DNA of 64,000 nucleotides, taken from NCBI GenBank assembly GCA_963770895.1, contig CAVYRF010000002.1, positions 3,136,001 through 3,200,000 on the forward strand, written 5' to 3'. The notes under the pieces are model-generated. The model had not been told where the DNA came from, ran no database searches, and saw only the letters and a list, made by a program, of their open reading frames with translations. The stretch comes from an uncultured Acidobacteriota bacterium. GTDB lineage: Bacteria; Acidobacteriota; Thermoanaerobaculia; Multivoradales; UBA5704. This document shows, piece after piece, positions 48,184 through 61,835 of the stretch; within the stretch, counting starts at the first letter, position 1; every line of letters starts with the position of its first letter. Both the position numbers and the translations under genes were made by a program.

Positions 48184-49814
48184 ATGAACTCGATCGTTCC
48201 GCTGGCGATCCCAACCAACGAGCCGGTGCGTGCCTACGGACCGGGGTCGCCCGAAAAAGCGTCGCTCAAGCGGCGCCTCGAAGAGATGCTGCGCGACACC
48301 GTCGAGGTGCCGCTGATCATCGGCGGCCGCGAAGTGCGCACCGGCGACACCGCGCAGGCGGTCTGCCCCCACGATCACGGCCACGTGCTGGCCACCTTCC
48401 ACCAGGCCGGCGCGCCGGAAGTCAACGCCGCGGCGGAAGCGGCCCAGAAGGCGTGGCGCGACTGGTCGGAAACGTCGTGGGAGACGCGCGCCGCGGTGCT
48501 GATGCGCGCTGCCGACCTGCTGGCGGGGCCGTGGCGCGACACCTTGAACGGCGCCACCATGCTCAACCAATCCAAGACGGCGCACCAGGCGGAGATCGAT
48601 GCGGCTTGCGAGCTGATCGATTTCTGGCGCTTCAACCCGTACTTCATGCAGGTGATCTACCAGGCGCAGCCGTGGTCGCACGCGGGGGTGTGGAACCGGG
48701 TGGACTATCGCCCGCTCGAAGGGTTCGTGTTCGCGGTGACGCCGTTCAACTTCACCTCGATCGGCGGCAACCTCCCCACGTCGCCCGCGGTCATGGGCAA
48801 CACGGTGCTGTGGAAGCCGGCCTCGACGGCGGTGCTGTCGGGCTACTACATCATGAAGATCCTGCAGGAGGCGGGGCTGCCCGACGGCGTGATCAATTTC
48901 CTGCCCGGCCGCGCCAACAAGGTGGGCGACCCGGTGCTCGCCCATCCCGACCTGGGCGGTATCCATTTCACCGGCTCGACGCCGGTGTTCCAGGGGATGT
49001 GGAAGACCCTGGGCGACAACATCGCGCAGTACCGCAGCTACCCGCGCATCGTCGGCGAAACCGGCGGCAAGAACTTCGTCTTTGTCCACCCGTCCGCGGA
49101 TCGCGACCACGGTGGTCACGGCGATCGTGCGCGGCGGCTTCGAATACCAGGGCCAGAAGTGCTCGGCGGGCTCGCGCGTCTACGTGCCGCGCTCCCTGTG
49201 GTCGGGGGTGCGGCAGGACCTGGTCGACCAGGTCGGCAGCATCCGCATGGGCGGCGCCGACCGATTTCCGCAACTTCATGGCGGCGGTCATCGATTCGTG
49301 GGCCTACGACCGGATCAAGCGCTACATCGACTTCGCCAAGGATTCCCCCGACGCGGAGATCCTGGTGGGCGGCGGTTGCGACAACTCGGCGGGCTATTTC
49401 ATCCAGCCGACGGTGGTGGTGACCACCAACCCGCGCTTCAAGCTGATGACCGAGGAGATCTTCGGCCCGGTGGTCACGGTCTTCGTCTACGAAGACGGCG
49501 ACCTGGACGCCACCGCCGACCTGTGCGACTCGACCAGCCCCTACGCCCTGACCGGCGCCGTGTTCGCCGAAGACCGCGCCGCGATCGAGCGCCTCAGCCG
49601 CCGCCTGCGCCACGCCGCGGGCAACTTCTACATCAACGACAAGCCGACCGGCGCCGTCGTCGGCCAGCAACCCTTCGGCGGCGCCCGCGCCTCGGGCACC
49701 AACGACAAGGCCGGCTCGATGGCCAACCTGATGCGCTGGACCTCCCAGCGCGCCATCAAAGAGACCTTCGTGCCGGCGCGGGACTACCGCTACCCCTTCA
49801 TGGCGGAGGAGTAA
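48184..49814 (+). pseudogene. pruA: L-glutamate gamma-semialdehyde (P5C) dehydrogenase with two +1 frameshifts (pseudogene or sequencing error)
   Basis: PFNFT, FTGS, GETGGKNF in frame 1; FEYQGQKCSA in frame 2; EEIFGP, NDKPTGAVVGQQPFGG in frame 3; extra bases near 49108 and 49253. Confidence 0.9.
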
Positions 49815-49952
49815 AGGCCGGCGTGGCGGCTTGGTAGGAGCCCCCCGGTCAGCCGTGAGGGCCGCGGGCGGGGCGGGGGCCGGGCGGCTGAAGGCGGCCG
49901 CCCTCCGGCCCCCCGTCTTCTGGGCCTCACGAGGGCGACCGCGCAGCTTGAG

Positions 49953-50114
49953 CTAGGTGCAGGTAATACAGGTCTGCACGATGGTGACGCAGGGCGGGGA
50001 AAGGGTGGGGCAGGGGTGGGAAGCAGCGGCCACCATACCCGCGAGGTGATCGCCGACCAGTTGGTGGACGGTTTCGCGGCTCAGCGTCAGCTTCCTGGTG
50101 TGTGGTTTTCTCAC
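49953..50114 (-). CDS. putative lanthipeptide/RiPP precursor peptide (53 aa from GTG; 58 aa from ATG at 50129)
   Basis: MRKPHTRKLTLSRETVHQLVGDHLAGMVAAASHPCPTLSPPCVTIVQTCITCT; KLxLxRETV leader, Cys/Thr/Ser-rich C-terminus; GGGGAAG RBS; below the ORF-track cutoff. Confidence 0.75.
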   Translation of the reverse strand: MRKPHTRKLTLSRETVHQLVGDHLAGMVAAASHPCPTLSPPCVTIVQTCITCT

Positions 50115-50542
50115 GGTTGGCTTCCCCATCGGCAGGCGAGATCCGTCGCGGTTCCCGGGGCGAGCGCCGTCACGCGCGACGCGGCGTCCTGGGAGAGCAG
50201 AGGGGTTCCGCGGGCCGGTAGATGCAAAAAATCTATTCGAAAGGGATGAGCGCCCGCAACCTGGAGGCGATCTGCGCTCCCGCGTTCCCGCCTACCGGTG
50301 GTGTCCTATCAGTGTGTTGGAGCTCGGGTTGGCCTAGACCTGCTGCAGGTTTCTCCCCGCAAGGGGAGGAACCGTTCCGAAACCGCCCTGCTCTACGTCG
50401 ATGAACCGGAAGGCAAGGAGACTCTGCGTCGCCTGGGCCGGCTCATCCTCAACCTGGCCGTCGAGACGACCCGCTTGCCCTGCGAGGAGTCGACGACCCG
50501 GGGCCGGGCGCTCCCGGAGGCCTGCGGTAGGATGCCGCCGCC

Positions 50543-51805
50543 ATGGGCTCGCGCATCGTATTGACCACCTTCGGCTCGCTCGGCGATCTCCATCCGTTCC
50601 TCGCCATCGGCATCGCGCTCAAGGCGCGCGGGCACGGCGTCGTGCTCGCCACCAGCGAGGGCTACCGCGACAAGGTGACGGCGGCAGGTCTCGAGTTCTA
50701 TCCGGTGCGGCCGCACGTCTCGCTGGAGGACCGCGACCTGGTGGCCTATGTAATGGACCTCAAGAAGGGCCCGGAGAGGGTGCTGCGCGAGATCATCCTG
50801 CCGGTGCTCCACGACAGCTACGTCGACCTGCTGGCGGCGATGGCGGGGGGCGCGGATCTCCTGGTCACCCATCCGCTGAGCTTCGCCGGCCCGCCGATCG
50901 CCGAGACGCGCGTCCTGCGCTGGGCCTCGGTGGCGCTGGCGCCGATGGGCTTCTTCTCGGCCTTCGATCCGCCGCTCCTGCCTCCCTTTCCGGCGCTGGC
51001 GCGGCTGCGCGCCCTGGGGCCGTGGATCAACGGCCGGGTGATGGGGTTCGGGCGCCGCATGGTGCTGCCGTGGACCGAGCCGGTGCGCCGCCTGCGCGCC
51101 GAGCTGGGCCTGCCGCCGGGCGCCAATCCGATCTTCGAGGGCCAGCACTCGCCGTATCTCGTGCTGGCGCTGTTCTCGGCGGTGCTGGGCGCGCCGCAGC
51201 CCGACTGGCCGCCGCAGACCGGGGTGACGGGCTTCGTGTTCTACGACCACCACGACGGGGCGGTCGACCTGCCGGCCGACCTGGAGCGCTTCCTCGCCGG
51301 CGGCGAGCCGCCGCTCGTTTTCACCCTCGGCTCGGCCGCCGTGCTCAGCCCCGGCCCCTTCTTCGCCGAGAGCGCCGCCGCCGCGCGGAGCCTCGGGCGC
51401 CGGGCCGTGCTGGTCGGCGTCGAGCCGCACGAGTGTCCCGCCGGGCTTCCCGACTCGATCTTCACCATCCGCTACGCCCCCTTCTACCGCCTCTTCCCGC
51501 GCGCCGCGGCCATCATCCATCAGGGAGGCATCGGCACCACCGGCCAGGCCCTCGCCGCCGGCCGGCCCATGCTGGTCGTGCCGTGGAGCCACGACCAGCC
51601 CGACAACGCCGCCCGCCTGGTGCGCCTGGGCGTCGCCCGCACCCTCGGCCGCGCGCGCTACACCGCCCCGCGCGCCGCGGCCGCCCTGCGTTCGCTGCTG
51701 AGCGACGCGCCAGCCACCGACCGCGCCGCCCGGCTCGGCGCCAAGGTGCGCGGCGAAAACGGCGTCGAGGTCGCCTGCGCCGCGCTCGAACGCCTACTGG
51801 CCTGA
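50543..51805 (+). CDS. GT1-family glycosyltransferase (RhlB/sterol glucosyltransferase-like)
   Basis: GSLGDLHPF, FTLGS, IHQGGIGTTGQALAAGRP, HDQPDNA. Confidence 0.92.
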   Translation: MGSRIVLTTFGSLGDLHPFLAIGIALKARGHGVVLATSEGYRDKVTAAGLEFYPVRPHVSLEDRDLVAYVMDLKKGPERVLREIILPVLHDSYVDLLAAMAGGADLLVTHPLSFAGPPIAETRVLRWASVALAPMGFFSAFDPPLLPPFPALARLRALGPWINGRVMGFGRRMVLPWTEPVRRLRAELGLPPGANPIFEGQHSPYLVLALFSAVLGAPQPDWPPQTGVTGFVFYDHHDGAVDLPADLERFLAGGEPPLVFTLGSAAVLSPGPFFAESAAAARSLGRRAVLVGVEPHECPAGLPDSIFTIRYAPFYRLFPRAAAIIHQGGIGTTGQALAAGRPMLVVPWSHDQPDNAARLVRLGVARTLGRARYTAPRAAAALRSLLSDAPATDRAARLGAKVRGENGVEVACAALERLLA

Positions 51806-51819
51806 CCCGCCGGCGCCGA

Positions 51820-54102
51820 TCACCTCGAAGGCGGCTCGCCTTCGCCGAGCATCCTCTGCAGCGCCGCGGCGGCTCCCGGCACGTCCAGACGGGCGGCGGC
51901 ATAGTCGGCGGCCAGCAGGTCGTCGGAGAGGTAGGGGTGGAACTTCTCGCGGCTGCGATTGGCGACCGAGCGCGCGAGGTCGAGCGCCGGTGGCGGCTCG
52001 CCGGCTGCCATACGGCCGAAGAGAGGGCGCAGGCGCTCCGGCGCCATCCTGGCGATGCCGAGCGCGGCGCCGAAGGCGGTCGCCTCGCAGCCGGCGAGAC
52101 GGAGCCAGAGCCGCAGCGTTTCCAGGATGCGGTCGCCGCACCACGGAAAGACGAGCGTGGTGTCGCCGTCCGCGAGCCACCAGGCCTTGGCCAGGCCATA
52201 GCGGATGAAGCTGGCGCGCCCTTCCGCCAGCAGCTCGCGCGCCCGCGGATCCAGGTAAACCGGCACCTCAGTCCCCGCCAGCACCTCGAACATCTTGCGG
52301 CGCACGCGATCGTGGACAGGCGGGAAATCGGCCGGCGCGAAGACCGGTGGGCGGCCGCCGCCGGCCGCCTGCACGTCGATCGTCTTTTGCCCCGCATCGA
52401 TGCCGACGATGCGCCAGCGGCGGCCGCCGAAAATGAGGAAGGAGCCGATCAGCAGGGAGATCTCGACCGGCATGTTCCCCAATACCCGGTCGCCGGCCAC
52501 GATGCGGTACTCCTCGGGCGACGAGAAGGCGGCGTAGAAGCCATAGTGGTTGACGACGCTCTCACCCGCGCCTCCCAGGACCAGCTCGCCGTCGTGATCC
52601 TGCTGAAGGAGGGAATGGCTCGCGAGGCTTCGCAGCACGGTGCCAAACTGCGAGCGGCTGACGCTCCCGAACGGACCCTGGCCGCAGAGGTCGTCCCAGG
52701 CTGGCGCGGCCCGTACGCCGCCGTGCTGGGCGATGAGGGAGAGGGTCTGCTGCACCAGGGTCGACAGGTGCAGCGCCCCCGGCCACGGCGGCTCGCACCA
52801 GCCGGCGAGCAGCAGATCCAGGGTGGCGATGGTCTGCACCAGCTCGGTCCGCAGGGCGTCACCGGGTGCGCTGTCGGCCTGCACCTCGCTCTCGGTGATG
52901 TAGACCCGCAGGATCGACGGGCCGCCGGTACGGCCGGAGCGGCCCAGCCGCTGACGCGTGCTGGCGACCGACGGCGGCGCGCCGAGCTGGGCGATGCTCT
53001 CGATCGCCCCGACGTCGATGCCCAGCTCCAGGGTTGTCGTGCAGATGGCCGTGGCGGGCCGCGAGCGGTCCTTGATCGCCGCCTCGGTCTCCTCGCGCAG
53101 GGCTTTCGAGAGGTTTCCGTGATGCGGCCAGAACTCGTTCGGCACCGCGAGGTCCTGACACCTCCGGCGCAGGCGGTCGGCGCAGAGCTCCACCCGCCGC
53201 CGCGAGTTGGCGAACACGAGGTGATGGCCGCCGCGAAGGGTCGCGAAGAGATGCGTCGCGATCTGCAGCTCGTCGGCAGACTCTGCATCCGGCTCCGCGC
53301 CGGCCTTCGCACTGCCATCGGTCGCGGTTTCAGCCGTGGCGGCGCCGACCCATCGCTCGCCGGCGCGCGCCGTTCCGGCACCGGCGCCCAGGCGGTAGCC
53401 GCGCACCTGCAGGCGCACCTCCTGGCCGCTCTCGTTGGAAACCACGATTCGCACGCCGCCGCCGCGGCGGGGGCGCAGAAAGTCGGCGGCGAGGCCCATG
53501 TCGCCCAGGGTCGCGCTCAGGCCCACCCGGGCGACGCGGCGAGCCAGGGCCGCCTCCAGCCGGTGGAGCTGCGATTGCAGCTGTCGCCCGCGCTCGGAGC
53601 CGATGAAGGCGTGCAGCTCGTCGATCACGCAGTAGGAGAGGCCGGCGAAGAGGGTTGCGATCCGCGAGCCGTGCAGCACGAAAAGAGCTTCCAGGGATTC
53701 CGGCGTGATCACCAGCACGCCTTCGGGATGCCGCAGCAGCCTCCGCTTGAAGCCGGCAGCCACGTCGCCGTGCCAGCGGTAGAGTGGCAGATCCAGCTCC
53801 TCGCAAAGGCCTTCTAGGCGGCGGAATTGATCGTTGATCAGCGCCTTGAGCGGCGACACGCAGAGGGCGCGAATCCCCTCTCCCGATCGTCCGGCCAGTG
53901 CGCTCAGGATGGGCAGGAAGGCGGCTTCCGTCTTCCCCCGCGCGGTACCCGCGGCGACGATGACGTCCGCGTCGCCACGCAGGATGAGCGGGATTGCCGC
54001 CTCCTGGATGTCGCGCAGCTCGTCCCAGCCCTGGTGCCAGATCCAGCGCTGGATCCTCGGATCGAGCTCGCGAAATGCGAGCGATTCGCCGGCGCCTGCC
54101 AT
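51820..54102 (-). CDS. Lhr-like DEAD/DEAH-box helicase (Shango SngC-like)
   Basis: GWDELRDIQ, GTARGKTEAAF, SPLKALINDQ, TPESLE, IDELH, LSAT, HHG, TLELGIDVG, QRLGRSGR. Confidence 0.92.
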   Translation of the reverse strand: MAGAGESLAFRELDPRIQRWIWHQGWDELRDIQEAAIPLILRGDADVIVAAGTARGKTEAAFLPILSALAGRSGEGIRALCVSPLKALINDQFRRLEGLCEELDLPLYRWHGDVAAGFKRRLLRHPEGVLVITPESLEALFVLHGSRIATLFAGLSYCVIDELHAFIGSERGRQLQSQLHRLEAALARRVARVGLSATLGDMGLAADFLRPRRGGGVRIVVSNESGQEVRLQVRGYRLGAGAGTARAGERWVGAATAETATDGSAKAGAEPDAESADELQIATHLFATLRGGHHLVFANSRRRVELCADRLRRRCQDLAVPNEFWPHHGNLSKALREETEAAIKDRSRPATAICTTTLELGIDVGAIESIAQLGAPPSVASTRQRLGRSGRTGGPSILRVYITESEVQADSAPGDALRTELVQTIATLDLLLAGWCEPPWPGALHLSTLVQQTLSLIAQHGGVRAAPAWDDLCGQGPFGSVSRSQFGTVLRSLASHSLLQQDHDGELVLGGAGESVVNHYGFYAAFSSPEEYRIVAGDRVLGNMPVEISLLIGSFLIFGGRRWRIVGIDAGQKTIDVQAAGGGRPPVFAPADFPPVHDRVRRKMFEVLAGTEVPVYLDPRARELLAEGRASFIRYGLAKAWWLADGDTTLVFPWCGDRILETLRLWLRLAGCEATAFGAALGIARMAPERLRPLFGRMAAGEPPPALDLARSVANRSREKFHPYLSDDLLAADYAAARLDVPGAAAALQRMLGEGEPPSR

Positions 54103-54121
54103 GCCGTACCGTGCCGCGTCG

Positions 54122-55513
54122 CTAGAGCTTGAACGCGGCGAGCTCGTCGTCGGCGTCAACGGTGGAGCCAGGGGTCGGGCTGGGGCCGGAGGTCGCCGGG
54201 TGGGGGTCGAACCCGGATTCGGGGTCGCCGGGGCTGCCGGCGGGAAGGGCCGCGGGATCGGCTTCGCCGGAGACGGTCACCTCGCCGAGCAGGCTTCGCC
54301 AGGAAGCCTCCGGGTTCTGGTCGAGGACGGCGAGCAGGTCGAGGAAGGCGCGGATGGTGTTGCGCGGCGTCCGGAAGTAGGCTTCGCCCACCTTGCGATA
54401 GCAATGTTCGAGGAAGGCGAGAATGGCTTCGTCGGGCAACAGCAGTGGGGCGGCGGCGCGGTCGGACGCATGGACCTCGCGCAGCCGCACCAGCAGCACG
54501 TAGAGCTCCTCCTGCGTCAGGTTGGGCAGATGGATCACCGGCCCGCTGTAGTCTCTCAAGCCCTCGCCGGCGAAGCGGTTGGCGCCCAGGCGGGAGCGCA
54601 GCGCCTCGTAGCTGTAGAGGCCGCGGCGCTCATCCATCAGGAGCTCGGGCGTGCCGCCCAGCAGGAAGCCGAGCCCGACGCTCGCTCCCTGCAGGGAGTC
54701 GTTGAGCATGCGCAGGATCTGCTCGTAATTGCTCGACCGGGCGCGCGTGTTGGCGAGCTTGTAGAGGTTGACCAGCTCGTCGAGGCAGACGAGCAGACCT
54801 CCGTAGCCGGCCAGCCGCACGAAGCGGGCGAAGACCTTGATCTGATCGTAGAAGTTGTCGTCGTCGACGATGGTGCGCACGCCCAGCGCCTTCCTGGCGT
54901 CGGTCCGGGTGGTGAACTCCCCCCGCAGCCAGCGGACGGCATCGCCCTTCAGGCGATCGTCGCTGGTGTCGTGACCGCGCCAGTAGGCGGCGACGACCGC
55001 CGCGAAGTCGTAGCCGCCCACCAGCTCCGACAGGCTGCCCAGGCGCTCCGTCAGGACGGCGTCGACCGCCAGGCCGCGGGTCTTGGCGTCCTCGAGCGCG
55101 GAGGTGACGAAGCGCTCGACCACGTTCGCCACCGCTCCTCCCTCGGGGCGGCTGCGCGTGGCGAGGTTCGCCATCAGCTCGGCGTACAGCGACCGCGCCT
55201 CGCCCGAGGTGCCGTGAAGCCGGCGGTCGGGGTTGAGGTCGGCATGAGCGCAGACCAGACCGCGCTCCATGGCGATAGCCCGCACCAGGAAAAGGAAGAA
55301 CGTCTTGCCCGAGCCGAACTCGCCGATCACGAAGCGGAAGGCCGAGCCGCCGTCGCGGATCGCCTCGACGTCCCGCAGCAGGGCCTCGATCTCCAGCTTG
55401 CGCCCCACCTGGATGTAACGCTGGCCCCGCCGCGGCACCACGCCGGCCCGCAGCGACTGCAGGATCGCCTCGCGATCGCGCGGGCGGATGGTCTCGGTCT
55501 TCGGCTCATCCAT
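54122..55513 (-). CDS. DUF2791/BrxD-like P-loop ATP-binding protein (Shango SngB-like)
   Basis: QSLRAGVVPRRG, Walker A GEFGSGKT, Walker B LLVCLDE, LYSYEAL.SRL, FRTPR. Confidence 0.9.
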   Translation of the reverse strand: MDEPKTETIRPRDREAILQSLRAGVVPRRGQRYIQVGRKLEIEALLRDVEAIRDGGSAFRFVIGEFGSGKTFFLFLVRAIAMERGLVCAHADLNPDRRLHGTSGEARSLYAELMANLATRSRPEGGAVANVVERFVTSALEDAKTRGLAVDAVLTERLGSLSELVGGYDFAAVVAAYWRGHDTSDDRLKGDAVRWLRGEFTTRTDARKALGVRTIVDDDNFYDQIKVFARFVRLAGYGGLLVCLDELVNLYKLANTRARSSNYEQILRMLNDSLQGASVGLGFLLGGTPELLMDERRGLYSYEALRSRLGANRFAGEGLRDYSGPVIHLPNLTQEELYVLLVRLREVHASDRAAAPLLLPDEAILAFLEHCYRKVGEAYFRTPRNTIRAFLDLLAVLDQNPEASWRSLLGEVTVSGEADPAALPAGSPGDPESGFDPHPATSGPSPTPGSTVDADDELAAFKL

Positions 55514-58016
55514 GCAGCATCCCCTCCAGCAGATCGGTTCTCACCTCGACCACCTCGTCGCCTTCGAGCACGGCCTCGCCGAAGGCTGTGAAAGCCGCCT
55601 CGTTGATGGTTTCGAGCGCTCCTTGCGGCAACAGGCCGAGCGCCTGGGTGAGCTGGGCGACCTTTTCGCGGCGCCACTCCGGACACGACGTGAGATAGCG
55701 TAGCAGGGCCGAATGGGCGGCATCCAAGCCGAGGATCGCGTAGCCGTCCGGGGCGGCGCGGCCAGCTGCGGGCGCGGCCGGAGTGATGGATGGAGCGGAC
55801 GCGGCGGCGGAGCTGGCGGAATCCACGGTGTCGGCGGAATCGAAGATCGAGGCCAGCACGCCGTGGAGCGCTGCCGTTTCCGCGATCGTGGTGCGAATCC
55901 GTGCCGCGTCGAGCACCGGACCCGGCGCAGTCGCAGGCGCCACCGGCGCCGCGGCCGCCGGCGGCGGCAGGGCAAAGCCAGCCGAGCTGCCGGCCGGCGC
56001 CACGATGATCGGCGCATCGGCCGATGAGGCGGCGACCGAGGAGCCGGCGGCAAGGGCGTCGGCGGCTGGGGCCGCGGGCGCGCCGAGGGCGCCGGCAGCA
56101 GCAGGCGCCGCCCCCGCGCTGAGGCGCGCGTGGACGTCGGAATAGACCTGCGCCGCCGGCAGGCCGAGAAGGCCGTAGATCTTCGCCAGGTGCGGCAGAT
56201 GCTCCGGCAGCGGCTGCCCTTCCGCCGTGACCAGCTCGACCAAGGCGCGCGGCAGCCACCCGCGCTGGGCGCTATCGAGCGGCGCCAGCCGCTTCCTAAC
56301 CTCTACAGGGCCCGGAGGATTGGCAATCAGCCAGAGGCGCCGCGCCTCCAGGCGGGCGAGCCATGCCGGGGAGCAGCCCAGACTGCCCGCGAAGGACGCC
56401 GCAAGCTGGTGCTCGCGGTGCGCGAGAAGCGGCGCCGCGCCGTCGCGTACCGTGGCCGCCAGATGAAGGAGCGCATCGGCCGCCCCGCTGCCAGCGGTCG
56501 CGGCGGCTGTGACAACGCCGGCGGTCGCGGCGGCGGTAGCGCCATCGCCGCCGGCGCGGCCACCACCCCCGGCGCTATCAGCGCCAGGCTGGAAGAAAGC
56601 CAGCCGGTGGACGCGGGACGGCGCGAAGCCGGCCATCCGAGCGTCGGGCTCGACGCCATAGCCGCGCGCCTCGAGAAACGCCGCCAGGGCTTCGGCATCG
56701 CCGCGGGCGAAGCGTCCGGCGCTCTTCGCCGGCCAGCGGGCGGCCACATCCCGCAGCTCGACGACGCCGCGATCGGGGCCGGCGATCTGCTCGGCGATCC
56801 AGGCGAGCAGCGACTTTCCCGCGGCGCTGTCGTGCGCCGCGGTCAGCTCGTGCGGCAGGAGAGCCACGGCCGCCGGGCTGTCGCCTTCGCCCGTCCGGCC
56901 GATCCACCGGCTGTAGGGCGCCAGCTCGTCGAGAACGCGGTTGCCGAGGTCCCGCAAGAGCGGTGGCGGCGCCGTGACGTCGACGTCCGGCATGTCGGGC
57001 AGAGCGAGCGGAAGAGGGCCGTCGAAGGTCGGGCTCGCGGCCACGTACTGCGTGGTGAGCCGGGCGCCGCCCGCCTCCAGCTGGAGCCCCGCCGCGAACG
57101 CCTCGTGGTAGCGCAGCAAGAAGAGGCGCCGGAAGTCCTCGGAGCAGCGCTCCGCCGCTCGGCGATGGCTGACCTCGGGCAGCGCGAGCATCCAGGCGAG
57201 CGCCCACTCGCCGGGCAGCGGCGCGCCGCGCCCGGCGCAAGCGCCGAGGCCGATTTTTAGGTCCAGCCAGCTGTTCGCCGACGTGGCGTCGAGCGGCGGC
57301 GCCAGGGTCGCTGGATTCACCCCTTCGAAGAGGATATTCACGGCGCGCAGGAAGCGGCTGGCATAGCCGTGAAATGACCGATTGGCGCCATACAGGGCGA
57401 GCAGCCGGCGCACCTCCGCAACCAGCAGCGGCACCTCCCGCGTTGCTGCCGGGTACCGCCGCGCGTCGATCAGCAGCCGGCGCTCGATGCCGTAGAAGTA
57501 CAGGAAGACGTAGCCGATATGGGCCAAGGGATCGGCGCGCCCGCCGGCGAGCCAGGCGAGATAGGCCGCCCGGCAGGCGGGCGGCATCGTCGAGTAGGAC
57601 GGCCAGTACGACATCTGCGCGCCCTGGTGGTCGGGGTGGCTCCGCGCCACCGGCAACCGCGGGTCGATGAGCGCCGGCTCGACGGGGGCGCGCCACCGGC
57701 TGAGTCCGGCGAGTCCCGACCCGACGTACAGCATGCCGGTGCCCAGGTCGAAGCCGCCCACCCTTCCGGACCACTCGCGCGGCTGCCACCAGCCATCCCG
57801 CACGGCGGCCGCGGAGACCGGCGCGGCGGACGCGACGGAGGCGACCGAGGCGACCCGGACCGCAACGGCCGACTGCGGCACCGGATCCGGATCCGCCGCC
57901 GGCGGGATGGGGCCGATCGCCAGCGAGATCGGGCCAGCCTGGCGCGCGGCGAGGTCGGCGCGCAGCCGCGCGATCGCCTGCTCGGCCCAGCGCAGCACTT
58001 CCGCGCCGAAACTCAC
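55506..58016 (-). CDS. TerB-N / TerB-like / TerB-C domain protein (Shango SngA-like)
   Basis: GMLYVG, EPALIDPRL, YWPSY..M.P..RAAYL.WL.GGR, IGYVFLYFYGIERRL (TerB-N); C-terminal GLL..GALETINEAAF (TerB-C); GTG start overlapping the upstream stop. Confidence 0.88.
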   Translation of the reverse strand: MSFGAEVLRWAEQAIARLRADLAARQAGPISLAIGPIPPAADPDPVPQSAVAVRVASVASVASAAPVSAAAVRDGWWQPREWSGRVGGFDLGTGMLYVGSGLAGLSRWRAPVEPALIDPRLPVARSHPDHQGAQMSYWPSYSTMPPACRAAYLAWLAGGRADPLAHIGYVFLYFYGIERRLLIDARRYPAATREVPLLVAEVRRLLALYGANRSFHGYASRFLRAVNILFEGVNPATLAPPLDATSANSWLDLKIGLGACAGRGAPLPGEWALAWMLALPEVSHRRAAERCSEDFRRLFLLRYHEAFAAGLQLEAGGARLTTQYVAASPTFDGPLPLALPDMPDVDVTAPPPLLRDLGNRVLDELAPYSRWIGRTGEGDSPAAVALLPHELTAAHDSAAGKSLLAWIAEQIAGPDRGVVELRDVAARWPAKSAGRFARGDAEALAAFLEARGYGVEPDARMAGFAPSRVHRLAFFQPGADSAGGGGRAGGDGATAAATAGVVTAAATAGSGAADALLHLAATVRDGAAPLLAHREHQLAASFAGSLGCSPAWLARLEARRLWLIANPPGPVEVRKRLAPLDSAQRGWLPRALVELVTAEGQPLPEHLPHLAKIYGLLGLPAAQVYSDVHARLSAGAAPAAAGALGAPAAPAADALAAGSSVAASSADAPIIVAPAGSSAGFALPPPAAAAPVAPATAPGPVLDAARIRTTIAETAALHGVLASIFDSADTVDSASSAAASAPSITPAAPAAGRAAPDGYAILGLDAAHSALLRYLTSCPEWRREKVAQLTQALGLLPQGALETINEAAFTAFGEAVLEGDEVVEVRTDLLEGMLHG

Positions 58017-61000
58017 GGCCACGGGGTTCCCATTTCGATGACGCGGCAGAGCGCGTTGGCGAGCCGCATCTGGCGCGGCGTCCGGCACCGCACCCGCGCC
58101 AGGTCGGGGCTGGCGACCACCACGGCGAGGCAGCAGCCGCGCGAGGTCGCGACGTTGAGGCGGTGCAGGCTGTACAGAAACTCCATGCCGCGCGGCGCAT
58201 CCTGGGCGGTGCTCGTCGCCATCGAATAGATCGCGATCGGCGCTTCCTGACCCTGGAACTTGTCGACCGTGCCGACGAGCGCGTCGGGCAGCGCCTCGCT
58301 GATCGTCTTGACCTGCGCATTGTACGGCGTGATCACCAGCACGTCGCCCATGCCGAGTGGGCGTGATAAACCTTTCGAATCCGACCACGTCCCCGCCGCG
58401 GCAAGCAGCGCGCCGACGATGCGGGCGATGAGCGCCGCCTCCTCGCTCGACTCCTTGCCGTTGCCGGCATGCGGCACGGGGAGATAGCGCAAACCGGCGC
58501 CGTCGAGCGGTCCCGCGCCGCGCACTTGCTGCCGATCGCGGCCGGCCTCAGGCGCCAGGCGGTCGTCGTAGAAGGCGCTGGAGGTGAAGTCGCAGATCGC
58601 GGGATGCAGGCGCCACGTCCGCTCGAGGAAGAGCCCCAGCTCCGGCGGCATGGTGAGGGCACCCCCGAGCAGGTGGGCCAGCGCCGACTTCTCGGCTCCC
58701 GGCGGATGGCTGCCGCGCAAAGGCTGATCCAGCTGTTGCGGGTCGCCGAGCAGGACGAGATTGCGGGCGCTGGGCGCGACGGCCACCGTGTTGGCGAGCG
58801 ACATCTGGCCGGCCTCGTCAACGAACAGCGTGTCGACCGCCGCGCCGAAGTCCTCGCGCGCCCACATCCAGGCGGTGCCGCCGGCGACGTCGATCGCACG
58901 CTCCCGAAGCGCCCGCAGCAGCGACTCGTTGGTGCCGAAGCTTTGCGCGCCGGCGCAGGTGCAGCTCTCCCCGGCGCCGGGCTTCTGGCCGAGCCGCAAC
59001 GTCAGCTTGCGCGCCGCGGCGGCGAGCGCCACCTTGTCGAGCAGATTGCCGATCACCTTATGGCTGTTGGCGGTCACCCCCACCTGCCGGCCCGCCGCCA
59101 CCAGATCGACGATCATCTCGGTGCCGGTCGTCGTCTTGCCCGAGCCCGGCGGCCCCTGGATGGCGAGGCAGCCCCGGTCGAGGGCCAGGCCGAGCCGGCG
59201 CGCCGCCACCGCCGCCGGCTCGTCGCCGGCAAGGACGCTGCCCGCCGCCTGGCCGGCGCGCGGCGGCCGCCGCAGCAGGAGATCCCGCGCGGCCCCGTAG
59301 CGCCCGTCGCCCTGCTCGTTCTGCTCGCTCTGGAGACCGTGCTCGATCACCCACTCGGCCACCCGCAGCAGGCTGTCCTTCTGCTCCTGTGCCTTTACCA
59401 ACAGCTCCGGGATCACCGAGGTGGGGTGCGGCTCGGCGCTGGTCCGGCCGCGCTTGAGGTCGAGCGTCCCGGCCGCGGTGTCCACCGCGACCACCTCGAT
59501 CGACTTGCCGGTCGCGGGATCCTTGACCGGTCTGCCCGGGCTCACCTCGTGCTCCTGCGGTGGAAACCGATAGCGGTGCACCAGCGACCTGGCCACGGTA
59601 GCGACGACGCCCTCGTAGACTAGGCCGCCGATCGGCTCCGGCTCCTCGATCCTTTCCTCGTCGCTCAGCCCGACCAGGAAGAACCAGCGCCACCATGCCG
59701 CCTTGTCCTCGCGGCGGTGCCAGGAAAGCAGCTGCGCCAGCAGCCAGCGGGCGCGCGCCGCGTCGCAATCACCAGCCACCCCGGCCTCGGCGCCGACGGC
59801 GGTTTCGTCCTTCTCGTCTTTCTCGACGCTCGCGGGCCCGGCCGCGGCCGGATCGAAGCCGGCGGTCAAGCGCTCCTCCGCCGCCCTCACCCGCTCTAGA
59901 TATTCGGTCAGCGCCGGGCTCGGCGACGGCTCGGGCCGCGCCGGCCGCGCCAGCGGCGTACCGCCCAGCCGCTCGGCCAGCTCGCGCCGGCGCTCCTCCA
60001 GCCAGTCGCGCAGGCGCCAGTTCGAGCGGCAGTCGTCGCGGTTGTACGCTTCGACGTGCTCCCGAATCGCCGGATCGCCATCTGGGCGGCCGCCTTCGTC
60101 CAGCCAGGCCGAAAAGGTCGCGAGGCTCGCGCCGGCGTCGCGCAGATCGACGGCGCGCTCGAAGCCGTACAGGGGTTCCAGACACTTGATCGAGTAGCTC
60201 TCGACCGAGGCCCGCAGCGATTGCCGCACCACGCGATAGAGGTCGACCAACACGCCACCGCGCAGCAGGCGATCCACCGCGTCCTCGCGCGTGGCGTGGC
60301 GGCCCATGAGGCGGCTGAGCGCCGTGCGCTCGTAGGGCGCGTAGTGGTAGATGTGGAGGTGCGGATCGCGCTCCAGCCGCGCGATGAAGAAATCGACCGT
60401 CTGCTCGAAGGCCCGGCGTTCGCCGGCGAGACTGATGGCGCCGCCATCGTCCCAGGACCAGAAGCGGTGGAACGCCGGCTCGCTCGCGGCATCCGGGCAG
60501 CCCGGATCGACAATGCCGAAGAGGAAATCGACGCCATCTTCGAGCGCGAACGGATCCCCCTCCATGTCGAAGAAGAGGTCGCCCGGCGAGGGCGCGGGAA
60601 GACCCGCCAGGCCGAGCGCGGGCTCGAGCTCGCCGGCGCGCGTCCGTGGCGGTTCGAGCAGCTCGTAGAGCGTGCGTCCGGCGCGCTCGCCCTCCACCTG
60701 GATGCGGGCCTGCTCGCGAACGCGCGCCAGGGCCGCGTCCTTGGTGCCGGCGGCCGCTCCGCGTTCCGCCGGTGGCAGCAGGGCGAGGGCTTGCCGCGTC
60801 GTGACGTCGCGCTCGCGCAGGTCGCGCCGCTGCTGCGCGGTGATGCCGGCGACCAGCGAGAGGTCGTCGACGCGGCGCAGGTGCGCCCGGCACTCGCCGC
60901 TCCACCGGCAGACCTCGCAGTGCTCCACAGGGTCGGGGCGGGTGGGAGGCGGAAAGCAGGGGGCGCCGTGGATGGGGAGCGCTTCGAAGCGCTGCTTGAC

Positions 61001-61594
61001 CAGCCGGTAATAGGCCGCGTACGAGGCCACCCGATGCGCCTCGACGCGCCGCAAGCTGCCGCCGAGCACCACATGCATCCAGGTGGGAGTCACGCCCTGG
61101 ACGGCGGCCAGCAGCTCGCTGTAGAGCGACAGCTGCAGCACCGCGCCGGCAGTCGCTTGGCGCGCCAGCTTGGTGTCGTACACCTCGTAGCTCCAGGGGC
61201 CGAGGGCGCTCGGCACCTCGACGCGCACCAGGAAGTCGGCGTGGCCGCGCCAGCGCCCGTCGAAGAGCGTCGCCTGGTAGACGACGTCGTCGCCGCGATG
61301 CAAGGCGGCCGCCAAGTCCTCGACCGCGGCGCGGAGCGCCGTGCCGCTCCGCGCTCCCCAACCGTCGTTCGCCATCTCGGTGACGCGGCGCCCCTCGGCG
61401 CGGAGCGCCGCCAGGAACCGCTTCTCGTGCTCCAGGCCGCGCCGCGCGATCGCGTCGAGCTCGGGATCCTCGCGGAAGGGCCGCTTGGCGAGGCCGGCGA
61501 GCGCCGCGGCCTCGAGATGCGCCAGGTGCTCGCAGGCCAGGTAACCGACGAGGTCGGTAGCGCTCCAAACGGTTTGGCCGTCGATCCGCTGCAT
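58013..61594 (-). CDS. TM0106-family RecB-like nuclease + RNase H-like domain + SF1 (UPF1/DNA2-like) helicase
   Basis: SATDL...L.C, GHADFL..YDTKL (PD-(D/E)xK), CEVCRW..C, FFDMEG, SYSIK, YNRDDC, QGPPGSGKT, VDEAGQ, GDPQQL, TVDKFQGQE, RLNVATSR. Confidence 0.93.
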   Translation of the reverse strand: MQRIDGQTVWSATDLVGYLACEHLAHLEAAALAGLAKRPFREDPELDAIARRGLEHEKRFLAALRAEGRRVTEMANDGWGARSGTALRAAVEDLAAALHRGDDVVYQATLFDGRWRGHADFLVRVEVPSALGPWSYEVYDTKLARQATAGAVLQLSLYSELLAAVQGVTPTWMHVVLGGSLRRVEAHRVASYAAYYRLVKQRFEALPIHGAPCFPPPTRPDPVEHCEVCRWSGECRAHLRRVDDLSLVAGITAQQRRDLRERDVTTRQALALLPPAERGAAAGTKDAALARVREQARIQVEGERAGRTLYELLEPPRTRAGELEPALGLAGLPAPSPGDLFFDMEGDPFALEDGVDFLFGIVDPGCPDAASEPAFHRFWSWDDGGAISLAGERRAFEQTVDFFIARLERDPHLHIYHYAPYERTALSRLMGRHATREDAVDRLLRGGVLVDLYRVVRQSLRASVESYSIKCLEPLYGFERAVDLRDAGASLATFSAWLDEGGRPDGDPAIREHVEAYNRDDCRSNWRLRDWLEERRRELAERLGGTPLARPARPEPSPSPALTEYLERVRAAEERLTAGFDPAAAGPASVEKDEKDETAVGAEAGVAGDCDAARARWLLAQLLSWHRREDKAAWWRWFFLVGLSDEERIEEPEPIGGLVYEGVVATVARSLVHRYRFPPQEHEVSPGRPVKDPATGKSIEVVAVDTAAGTLDLKRGRTSAEPHPTSVIPELLVKAQEQKDSLLRVAEWVIEHGLQSEQNEQGDGRYGAARDLLLRRPPRAGQAAGSVLAGDEPAAVAARRLGLALDRGCLAIQGPPGSGKTTTGTEMIVDLVAAGRQVGVTANSHKVIGNLLDKVALAAAARKLTLRLGQKPGAGESCTCAGAQSFGTNESLLRALRERAIDVAGGTAWMWAREDFGAAVDTLFVDEAGQMSLANTVAVAPSARNLVLLGDPQQLDQPLRGSHPPGAEKSALAHLLGGALTMPPELGLFLERTWRLHPAICDFTSSAFYDDRLAPEAGRDRQQVRGAGPLDGAGLRYLPVPHAGNGKESSEEAALIARIVGALLAAAGTWSDSKGLSRPLGMGDVLVITPYNAQVKTISEALPDALVGTVDKFQGQEAPIAIYSMATSTAQDAPRGMEFLYSLHRLNVATSRGCCLAVVVASPDLARVRCRTPRQMRLANALCRVIEMGTPWP

Positions 61595-61835
61595 GACGTA
61601 GCCGAAGGTGACGTGGGGACCGAGCCACTGTAGCAGAAACCCTCGAAGATGCTTAGATCTTCGACAAAGCACCTCCTGCACAAACACTGTCCAAGGACAG
61701 CGCCCGCCTACCGGGTTGCTGCGGGTTTGCGTGCTCTTGTGCTATGCTTTTGGGGCTATCGACTGACGTCACGTCTGCCAGGTCACGCTTGCAACCAACG
61801 CCGCAGCTCTGACCTGTACCGCTGGCCCTATCGCC

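Follow-up and report, generated by a model that had tools for sequence, protein, structure and literature searches.

A Shango defence locus headed by a TM0106-family nuclease-helicase gene in an uncultured acidobacterium

Results

We analysed a 64,000-nucleotide stretch of an uncultured acidobacterial genome (assembly GCA_963770895.1, contig CAVYRF010000002.1, positions 3,136,001 to 3,200,000), referred to below as the window, and concentrate on four open reading frames (ORFs) that span 51820-61594 on its minus strand and whose existence and junctions were confirmed from the sequence. Three of them, sngA, sngB and sngC, are a canonical, ordinary three-gene Shango defence system. The fourth, at the front of the block, belongs to the TM0106 family; it is more likely a further defence gene or a helper that Shango can do without than a necessary component of the system (Table 1). 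The first-pass annotation of the window had described the four genes as co-oriented and tightly packed, and the ORF coordinates agree in every detail: TM0106 ends and SngA starts within the GTGA at 58016-58013, 8 bp are common to sngA and sngB, and a 19-bp gap separates sngB from sngC. Its domain calls for the four proteins are likewise borne out by Pfam, PADLOC and NCBIfam.

Table 1. Features of the locus, in window coordinates
Feature	Coordinates	Strand	Remarks
TM0106/COG2251 nuclease-exonuclease-helicase	58013..61594	-	ATG start, 1193 aa
SngA, TerB_N + TerB_C protein	55506..58016	-	GTG start, 836 aa
SngB, BrxD-like/DUF2791 P-loop ATPase	54122..55513	-	463 aa
SngC, SF2 DExH helicase	51820..54102	-	760 aa
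Divergent intergenic region, TM0106 start to STAS start	61595..61835	.	241 bp, from sequence
Variable 12-kb insert	49815..61835	.	between pruA-like aldehyde dehydrogenase gene and anti-sigma-factor-antagonist (STAS) gene
GT1-type glycosyltransferase	50543..51805	+	Pfam + NCBIfam; convergent with sngC, 14-bp gap

The assignment of the trio to Shango is supported by its gene order, in which a TerB gene is followed by an ATPase gene and then a DEAD/DEAH helicase gene, and by the best PADLOC matches, which are SngA, SngB and SngC at 243, 586 and 863 bits; the three-gene architecture proposed in the first-pass annotation is thereby upheld. The related BrxD and BrxHI models score only 146 bits with SngB and 379 bits with SngC. 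In Pfam, SngA has TerB_N at residues 85-287 (E 5e-51) and TerB_C at 687-831 (E 8e-23), SngB is PF10923, and SngC consists of DEAD and Helicase_C domains. The motor motifs are intact: the Walker A G/G/K, Walker B DE and R308 of SngB are invariant in 105 homologues, and the GKT, DELH, SAT and QRxxRxxR of SngC in 96. The closest named relatives of SngB are from the Thermoanaerobaculia (Acidobacteriota). Shango has been described as a system of three genes, a three-gene clone of which is enough for a modest, 10-100-fold protection (PMC10250203), and family membership suggests that the window Shango too has anti-phage activity. Membrane surveillance has been proposed for the system (bioRxiv 10.1101/2022.05.11.491447), and SngC has been grouped with BrxHI, DruE and DpdJ in a defence-specific clade of superfamily 2 (SF2) helicases (PMC12278908); the available parts of these two papers and of PMC10250203 give no mechanism. 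As the first-pass annotation had stated, Shango has no dedicated nuclease component, either in our domain scans or in the available part of PMC10250203. In the Shango locus of PA14, a gene for a "large multi-domain helicase" adjoins sngA outside the cloned part (PMC10250203).

Three observations on other Shango loci are recorded here. The SngC of locus L071 (L071:1695-5489, plus strand; 1264 residues), whose gene is convergent with a TM0106 gene, has a C-terminal metallo-beta-lactamase/RMMBL-type extension with weak Pfam scores and is possibly a Shango helicase-nuclease fusion. A divergent SngB subgroup of about 365-390 bits forms a long branch (L180 of G228, G306, G822 and G828; family f14). 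In an Omnitrophota locus, a different superfamily 1 (SF1) helicase of 1111 residues with AAA_11 and a zinc ribbon closely follows sngC (L020:10198-13533, plus strand).

The TM0106 protein matches TIGR03491 at 267.2 bits, against a curated cut-off of 97.45, and combines in one chain a PD-(D/E)xK nuclease, an RNase_H_2 domain (PF13482, residues 340-532) and, C-terminal to the nuclease, an SF1B (Upf1/Dna2-like) helicase matched by AAA_11 and AAA_12. Of the nuclease residues, D120 and K142 occur in 65 of 65 homologues and D140 is D or E; four cysteines in the pattern of an iron staple, recognised as a sequence pattern only, are kept at C21, C226, C229 and C235 in 57, 64, 64 and 64 of the 65. The DEDDy exonuclease residues D343, E345, Y517 and D521 are invariant in these homologues, as are the helicase motifs checked, except for two conservative swaps; the helicase has its Walker A at 814-821, DE at 926-927 and R1152. 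A profile search of PDB sequences returned IGHMBP2, UPF1, SEN1 and Dna2. An AlphaFold2 model built from a 66-row alignment reached a predicted local distance difference test score (pLDDT) of 90.5 and a predicted TM-score (pTM) of 0.89, a single-sequence model (pLDDT 37) having been discarded. Its top Foldseek match is Dna2 (5EAN; E 1.9e-25), with 17% identity, a TM-score on the query of 0.36 over the whole chain and a root-mean-square deviation of 22.6. By motif, model and analogy, TM0106 would most likely degrade DNA in a Dna2-like manner, the likeness being one of how it would work. With a motor and nucleases in a single chain, it would on architectural grounds need no partner.

This architecture, a DUF83-like PD-(D/E)xK domain with PF13482 and tandem AAA domains, has been catalogued before, as RNase-H-like family F.13 (PMC3985635) and in PMC3424549. 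Papers on what TM0106 does, or on a link with Shango, were not found in a search that covered papers without their supplements, where candidate tables could list the family. A separate short form of TM0106, of about 470-500 residues, without the helicase and at 26-28% identity, was seen in L192, L193 and L194 (G247, G050 and G134).

As to expression, the four genes are likely to be co-transcribed in the window genome, and the divergent intergenic region ahead of the TM0106 gene is, from its position, the presumed promoter region. A sigma-70 promoter scan of the locus gave no match, and at such GC content scans for promoters and terminators are uninformative. GC content of the four genes is 70-74%, and 0.86-0.92 at third codon positions (GC3), like that of the neighbouring genes. 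Contigs of soil DNA from one study, possibly of the source sample, span the SngA-SngB and SngB-SngC junctions; among the matches listed, beyond which there are 339 further pieces, none crosses the TM0106-SngA junction. Since four-base overlaps are common in the window, being found at four other gene pairs (43 other genes are called), the GTGA overlap carries little weight by itself. In the only close copy of the block, in G007, a relative from the same genus, a 37-bp gap stands between TM0106 and sngA and there is no GTGA overlap. The GTG start of sngA is backed by one close homologue, L001 (the contig of G007), in which a GTG lies equally far from a common "LRWAE" motif. This N-terminal segment occurs in the window and in L001, both tandem copies, and in no other of the 94 SngA proteins extracted, each of which was taken to begin close to the first homology.

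The adjacency of TM0106 and Shango, which the first-pass annotation had singled out, does recur, but most Shango loci are without TM0106. It was found in 10 of 22 other strong-SngB genomes of a class sample, in 3 of 80 metagenome TM0106 loci and in 2 of 80 SngB loci. The last set comes from species genomes (at least 3 kb available upstream in 59 and downstream in 57) and has TM0106 upstream in tandem in L001 and convergent in L071, so that it lies directly upstream in 1 of 80 and is missing from 78. The metagenome loci (at least 3 kb upstream in 34, downstream in 45) have TM0106 downstream of sngC in L205 and L222 and upstream of sngA in L241; the other 77 do not abut Shango. A Mesorhizobium plasmid has both in a single defence island, with 15 kb between them. 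Among the 71 genomes of the window's own family, 15 have SngB, 8 have TM0106 and 3 have both (1.7 expected if independent), leaving 12 SngB genomes without TM0106 by TIGR03491 and 5 TM0106 genomes without Shango. TM0106 is patchy, occurring in 2 of 10 genomes of the genus and 8 of 71 of the family.

A class sample of 401 genomes, from which the weaker or fragmentary SngB matches of G228, G306 and G401 were excluded, contains 22 other genomes with a strong SngB. The ten with an adjacent TM0106 comprise eight in which it is head-to-head with sngA (all in one family), G237, where it is convergent, and G103, where it is downstream; the remaining 12 lack the adjacency. Some linked copies are partial: that of G111 is cut at a contig end, that of G368 is a C-terminal half and that of G103 is a fragment of 194 residues. 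A phylum sample of 401 genomes has TM0106 in 56 and SngB in 10, with both only in the window genome (G000) and in G056, where they are on different contigs; none of the 7 SngB genomes outside the class has TM0106. The link thus takes four geometries (upstream tandem, head-to-head, convergent and downstream tandem), and the order TM0106-sngA-sngB-sngC is limited to the window, G007 and L241. Shango without TM0106 and TM0106 without Shango are each the rule.

Trees made with FastTree and with quick IQ-TREE runs under the LG model place the linked TM0106 proteins apart. In the TM0106 tree (66 proteins, without L205 and the partial G103, G111 and G368, which are too short), the window protein groups with L001, six head-to-head proteins form another group, and G237, L241, L222 and L071 stand separately. 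An approximately unbiased (AU) test rejects a single clade of linked proteins (p 2.8e-6; 8 linked versus 14 others, with L071 excluded for its long branch), and the co-evolution with Shango that the first-pass annotation had raised is not seen. In the SngB tree (104 proteins), the window and L001 belong to a clade of 13 rows, the rest being 10 unlinked members and G237; the TM0106 of G237 is from a different lineage. The closest SngB relatives of the window, at 70-76% identity, have no TM0106. The head-to-head SngB clade has nine rows, seven of them linked. In G162, Shango is accompanied by the sequence that lies behind TM0106 in G235 (81% over 800 bp), but TM0106 itself is missing; G162 has lost it and has retained both Shango and the flank next to it. 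The separate tree positions and this loss indicate that the link has at least five origins and is not permanent. For the window, we propose that TM0106 became attached to Shango in the ancestry of the G000/G007 block and that both have since moved together.

TM0106 is a resident of defence islands that settles beside many systems. At 91 TM0106 loci we took the closest two called genes on either side; 89 of the loci gave neighbours (254 proteins). PADLOC models match 78 of these (31%) at E<=1e-10, compared with 1 of the 44 other window genes (2%), which served as an unmatched control. A neighbour match occurs at 37 of the 78 metagenome loci and at 8 of the 11 class loci, three of these being generic. 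The metagenome partners (n=78) are restriction-modification at no fewer than 9 loci, Shango and HerA at 3 each, and the cyclic-oligonucleotide system CBASS, Azaca, Tiamat and AbiE at 2 each; Gabija, Zorya, Wadjet, Hhe-like and DRT are single partners. The bacteriophage exclusion system BREX lies beside TM0106 at 3 of the 11 class loci. At L185 and L191 (G056 and G035), TM0106 is co-oriented and shortly upstream of brxA, and at L181 it is convergent with brxL. With Tiamat, Azaca and CBASS at 2 of 78 loci each and Shango at 3, Shango is no outlier among the partners.

Six of 55 plasmid matches were opened. On NZ_CP101284.1 (L280:3618-10351), TM0106 is the tail of a multiubiquitin-E2-ThiF-DUF6527 operon, 19 bp behind it; the operon may resemble a Bil-type system. 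Other plasmid copies lie 11 bp after a helicase pair, 83 bp after an Abi gene and near WYL or DUF2357 genes, and one is beside SOS-response, AlkB, DinB and error-prone polymerase genes. A tight, co-oriented placement behind or before defence operons is thus a habit of TM0106. We also considered whether Shango generally recruits a neighbouring nuclease; no nuclease recurs among the 131 nearest neighbours of 80 Shango loci (TM0106 neighbours omitted, 23 near-duplicate or short loci dropped), and the idea was rejected.

The block lies in a variable insert that contains the glycosyltransferase gene, sngCBA and TM0106. In six of nine genus relatives (G002, G003, G005, G007, G008 and G009), the pruA-like and STAS genes that flank it are 19-205 bp apart, so the 12 kb in the window is an insert; at this site the other three relatives are rearranged, split or without a listed match. 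No integrase, tRNA, Rfam match or boundary repeat was found at the insert, and PADLOC matches 1 of the 44 other window genes (a subtilase). G007 carries all four genes, in unchanged order, at another site, with TM0106 67% and SngB 79% identical to those of the window. The glycosyltransferase was considered as a part of the defence block and rejected, as G007 has a SIR2-like gene after sngC (L282:2-898, minus strand; G007:C165; PADLOC 272 bits). This passenger gene of the insert (50543-51805) has weak macrolide/rifamycin glycosyltransferase matches, all far below cut-off. The pruA-like gene (48184-49814, plus strand) is broken across frames by its Aldedh matches; since the soil contigs lack one base each at 49105 and 49252, the breaks are probably assembly indels and the gene no pseudogene.

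Discussion

We favour, with a probability of about 0.58, the view that a canonical Shango and a self-contained, Dna2-like TM0106 defence gene travel together here as two defence units in one mobile block. TM0106 has come to lie beside Shango several times independently but is found beside many other defence systems as well, so that it probably adds a separate defence or helps Shango without being needed by it. Several observations weigh against two merely co-travelling units. Within the literature searched, no TM0106 protein was found that has been shown to defend, and the enrichment of defence neighbours was measured against a single unmatched window. The insert in G000 holds no other defence gene, and G007 has the four-gene block at another site. 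In the window's own family, TM0106 and SngB are adjacent in all three genomes that have both (G000, G007 and G237), and in genus g79 (35 genomes, 2 weaker SngB matches excluded) TM0106 is head-to-head with sngA in 8 of 9 strong-SngB genomes (G827 by coordinates only, G368 by its C-terminal half only). The linked TM0106 proteins of g79 are only 67-74% identical, and the blocks, which stand at different chromosomal sites, have no 3-kb flanks in common; this means that the four genes have been moved or retained together while TM0106 diverged by about 30%. The linkage is more persistent than expected of a chance island neighbour.

In a less likely alternative, TM0106 serves Shango as an optional nuclease module that is coupled to it in function, recruited several times and kept for synergy: SngB and SngC would unwind or expose invader DNA and TM0106 would degrade it, widening or strengthening defence. 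The juxtapositions, at least five and independent, the four-gene blocks that two lineages keep stably at different sites, a Shango of two motor-type proteins without a nuclease domain and the possible fused nuclease of L071, with its weak scores, all fit such a module. It is harder to reconcile with the neighbours of Shango, among which no nuclease recurs, with the head-to-head and convergent layouts, which exclude one transcript in most linked cases, with Tiamat, Azaca and CBASS flanking TM0106 nearly as often as Shango does, and with the fragmentary state of two linked copies (G103 and G368). A strict version makes the block an obligate four-gene variant of Shango, in which TM0106 is a subunit or effector coupled through translation; it follows the first-pass annotation, which had seen a possible new system here, and we regard it as very improbable. 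The four co-oriented genes with their 4-, 8- and 19-bp junctions, the same order in G007 and L241, and the "LRWAE" segment found only in the two tandem copies of 94 would suit it. However, the overlap is replaced by 37 bp in G007, so the coupling is not conserved; the TM0106 of L241 is in another clade; the nearest SngB relatives (70-76% identity) lack TM0106, as do 12 of the 15 family Shangos; three other geometries exist; and no TM0106-plus-Shango clade co-evolves across geometries (AU p 2.8e-6). Varying order, unconserved overlap, polyphyly and equally near other partners together leave the claim of a fourth subunit unsupported, and optional partnership as a possibility.

It is also improbable that TM0106 is no defence gene but a repair or recombination enzyme of mobile elements, engaged like Dna2 in end resection and flap or Okazaki processing, and that it occurs in the same variable loci as Shango solely through the mobility of both. 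Such a role would agree with the fold and motif likeness to Dna2, with the plasmid copy beside SOS-response and polymerase genes and with the 41 of 78 metagenome loci that have no PADLOC match among the nearest genes, but not with the patchy presence in genus and family or with defence matches in 31% of neighbours versus 2% in the control.

If Shango and TM0106 are two defence units, each would act on its own terms. The TerB protein SngA may sense or anchor at the membrane, the ATPase SngB may assemble or load, and the SF2 helicase SngC may act on invader nucleic acid. The SF1B motor of TM0106 would load where single and double strands meet or at free ends, for example in replication intermediates of phages or plasmids, and, by analogy with Dna2 and Bad, would move 5'->3'; by the same kind of analogy, its iron-staple nuclease would cut the single strand and its DEDDy domain would trim 3' ends. 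The benefit of TM0106 beside Shango could be additive or synergistic with no required-subunit relation.

The Shango part of the locus is ordinary as it stands, and the architecture of TM0106 has been catalogued; what is new is the measured association of TM0106 with defence islands and its repeated link with Shango. The family is common (56 of 401 genomes in the phylum sample), and if it is a stand-alone Dna2-like defence gene, a common but unannotated resident of defence islands gets a name. A bolder proposition, which we consider doubtful, is that TM0106 is an undescribed, widespread anti-phage effector repeatedly recruited as the missing DNA-degrading arm of Shango, the block being an enhanced Shango in which two helicases of opposite families feed a Dna2-like nuclease. 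If true, this would provide a first handle on how Shango acts. At 9.8 kb, the locus is a compact test case both for a defence role of TM0106 and for cooperation with Shango.

Comparison with known systems

Mokosh combines a COG1112 Upf1-like helicase with a phospholipase D (PLD) nuclease (bioRxiv 10.1101/2022.05.11.491447). The helicase region of TM0106 matches the PADLOC models MkoA (126 bits) and MkoC, whereas its nucleases are of the PD-(D/E)xK and DEDDy types, and Pfam, PADLOC and NCBIfam scans of the four proteins found no PLD or kinase domain. SngB and SngC match the BrxD and BrxHI models of type 2 BREX, but the Sng models score far higher, and PADLOC finds no pgl/brx core gene (pglX, pglZ or brxC) among the 44 other window genes.

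Bad is described as an iron-sulphur single-strand DNA endonuclease and 5'->3' helicase that recognises junctions of single- and double-stranded DNA (PMC7430649). TM0106 resembles Dna2 (5EAN) and Bad in having a RecB-type nuclease with four staple cysteines at the N-terminus and an SF1B helicase at the C-terminus, the likeness to Bad being by description and not by sequence; it differs from Dna2 in its extra DEDDy exonuclease domain. From the catalogued TM0106 family (TIGR03491; COG2251) the window protein does not differ in architecture. The trio has the genes, order, orientation, PADLOC models and intact motor motifs of Shango, and where the published clones carry three genes, the window adds a TM0106 gene fused to the front of the operon.

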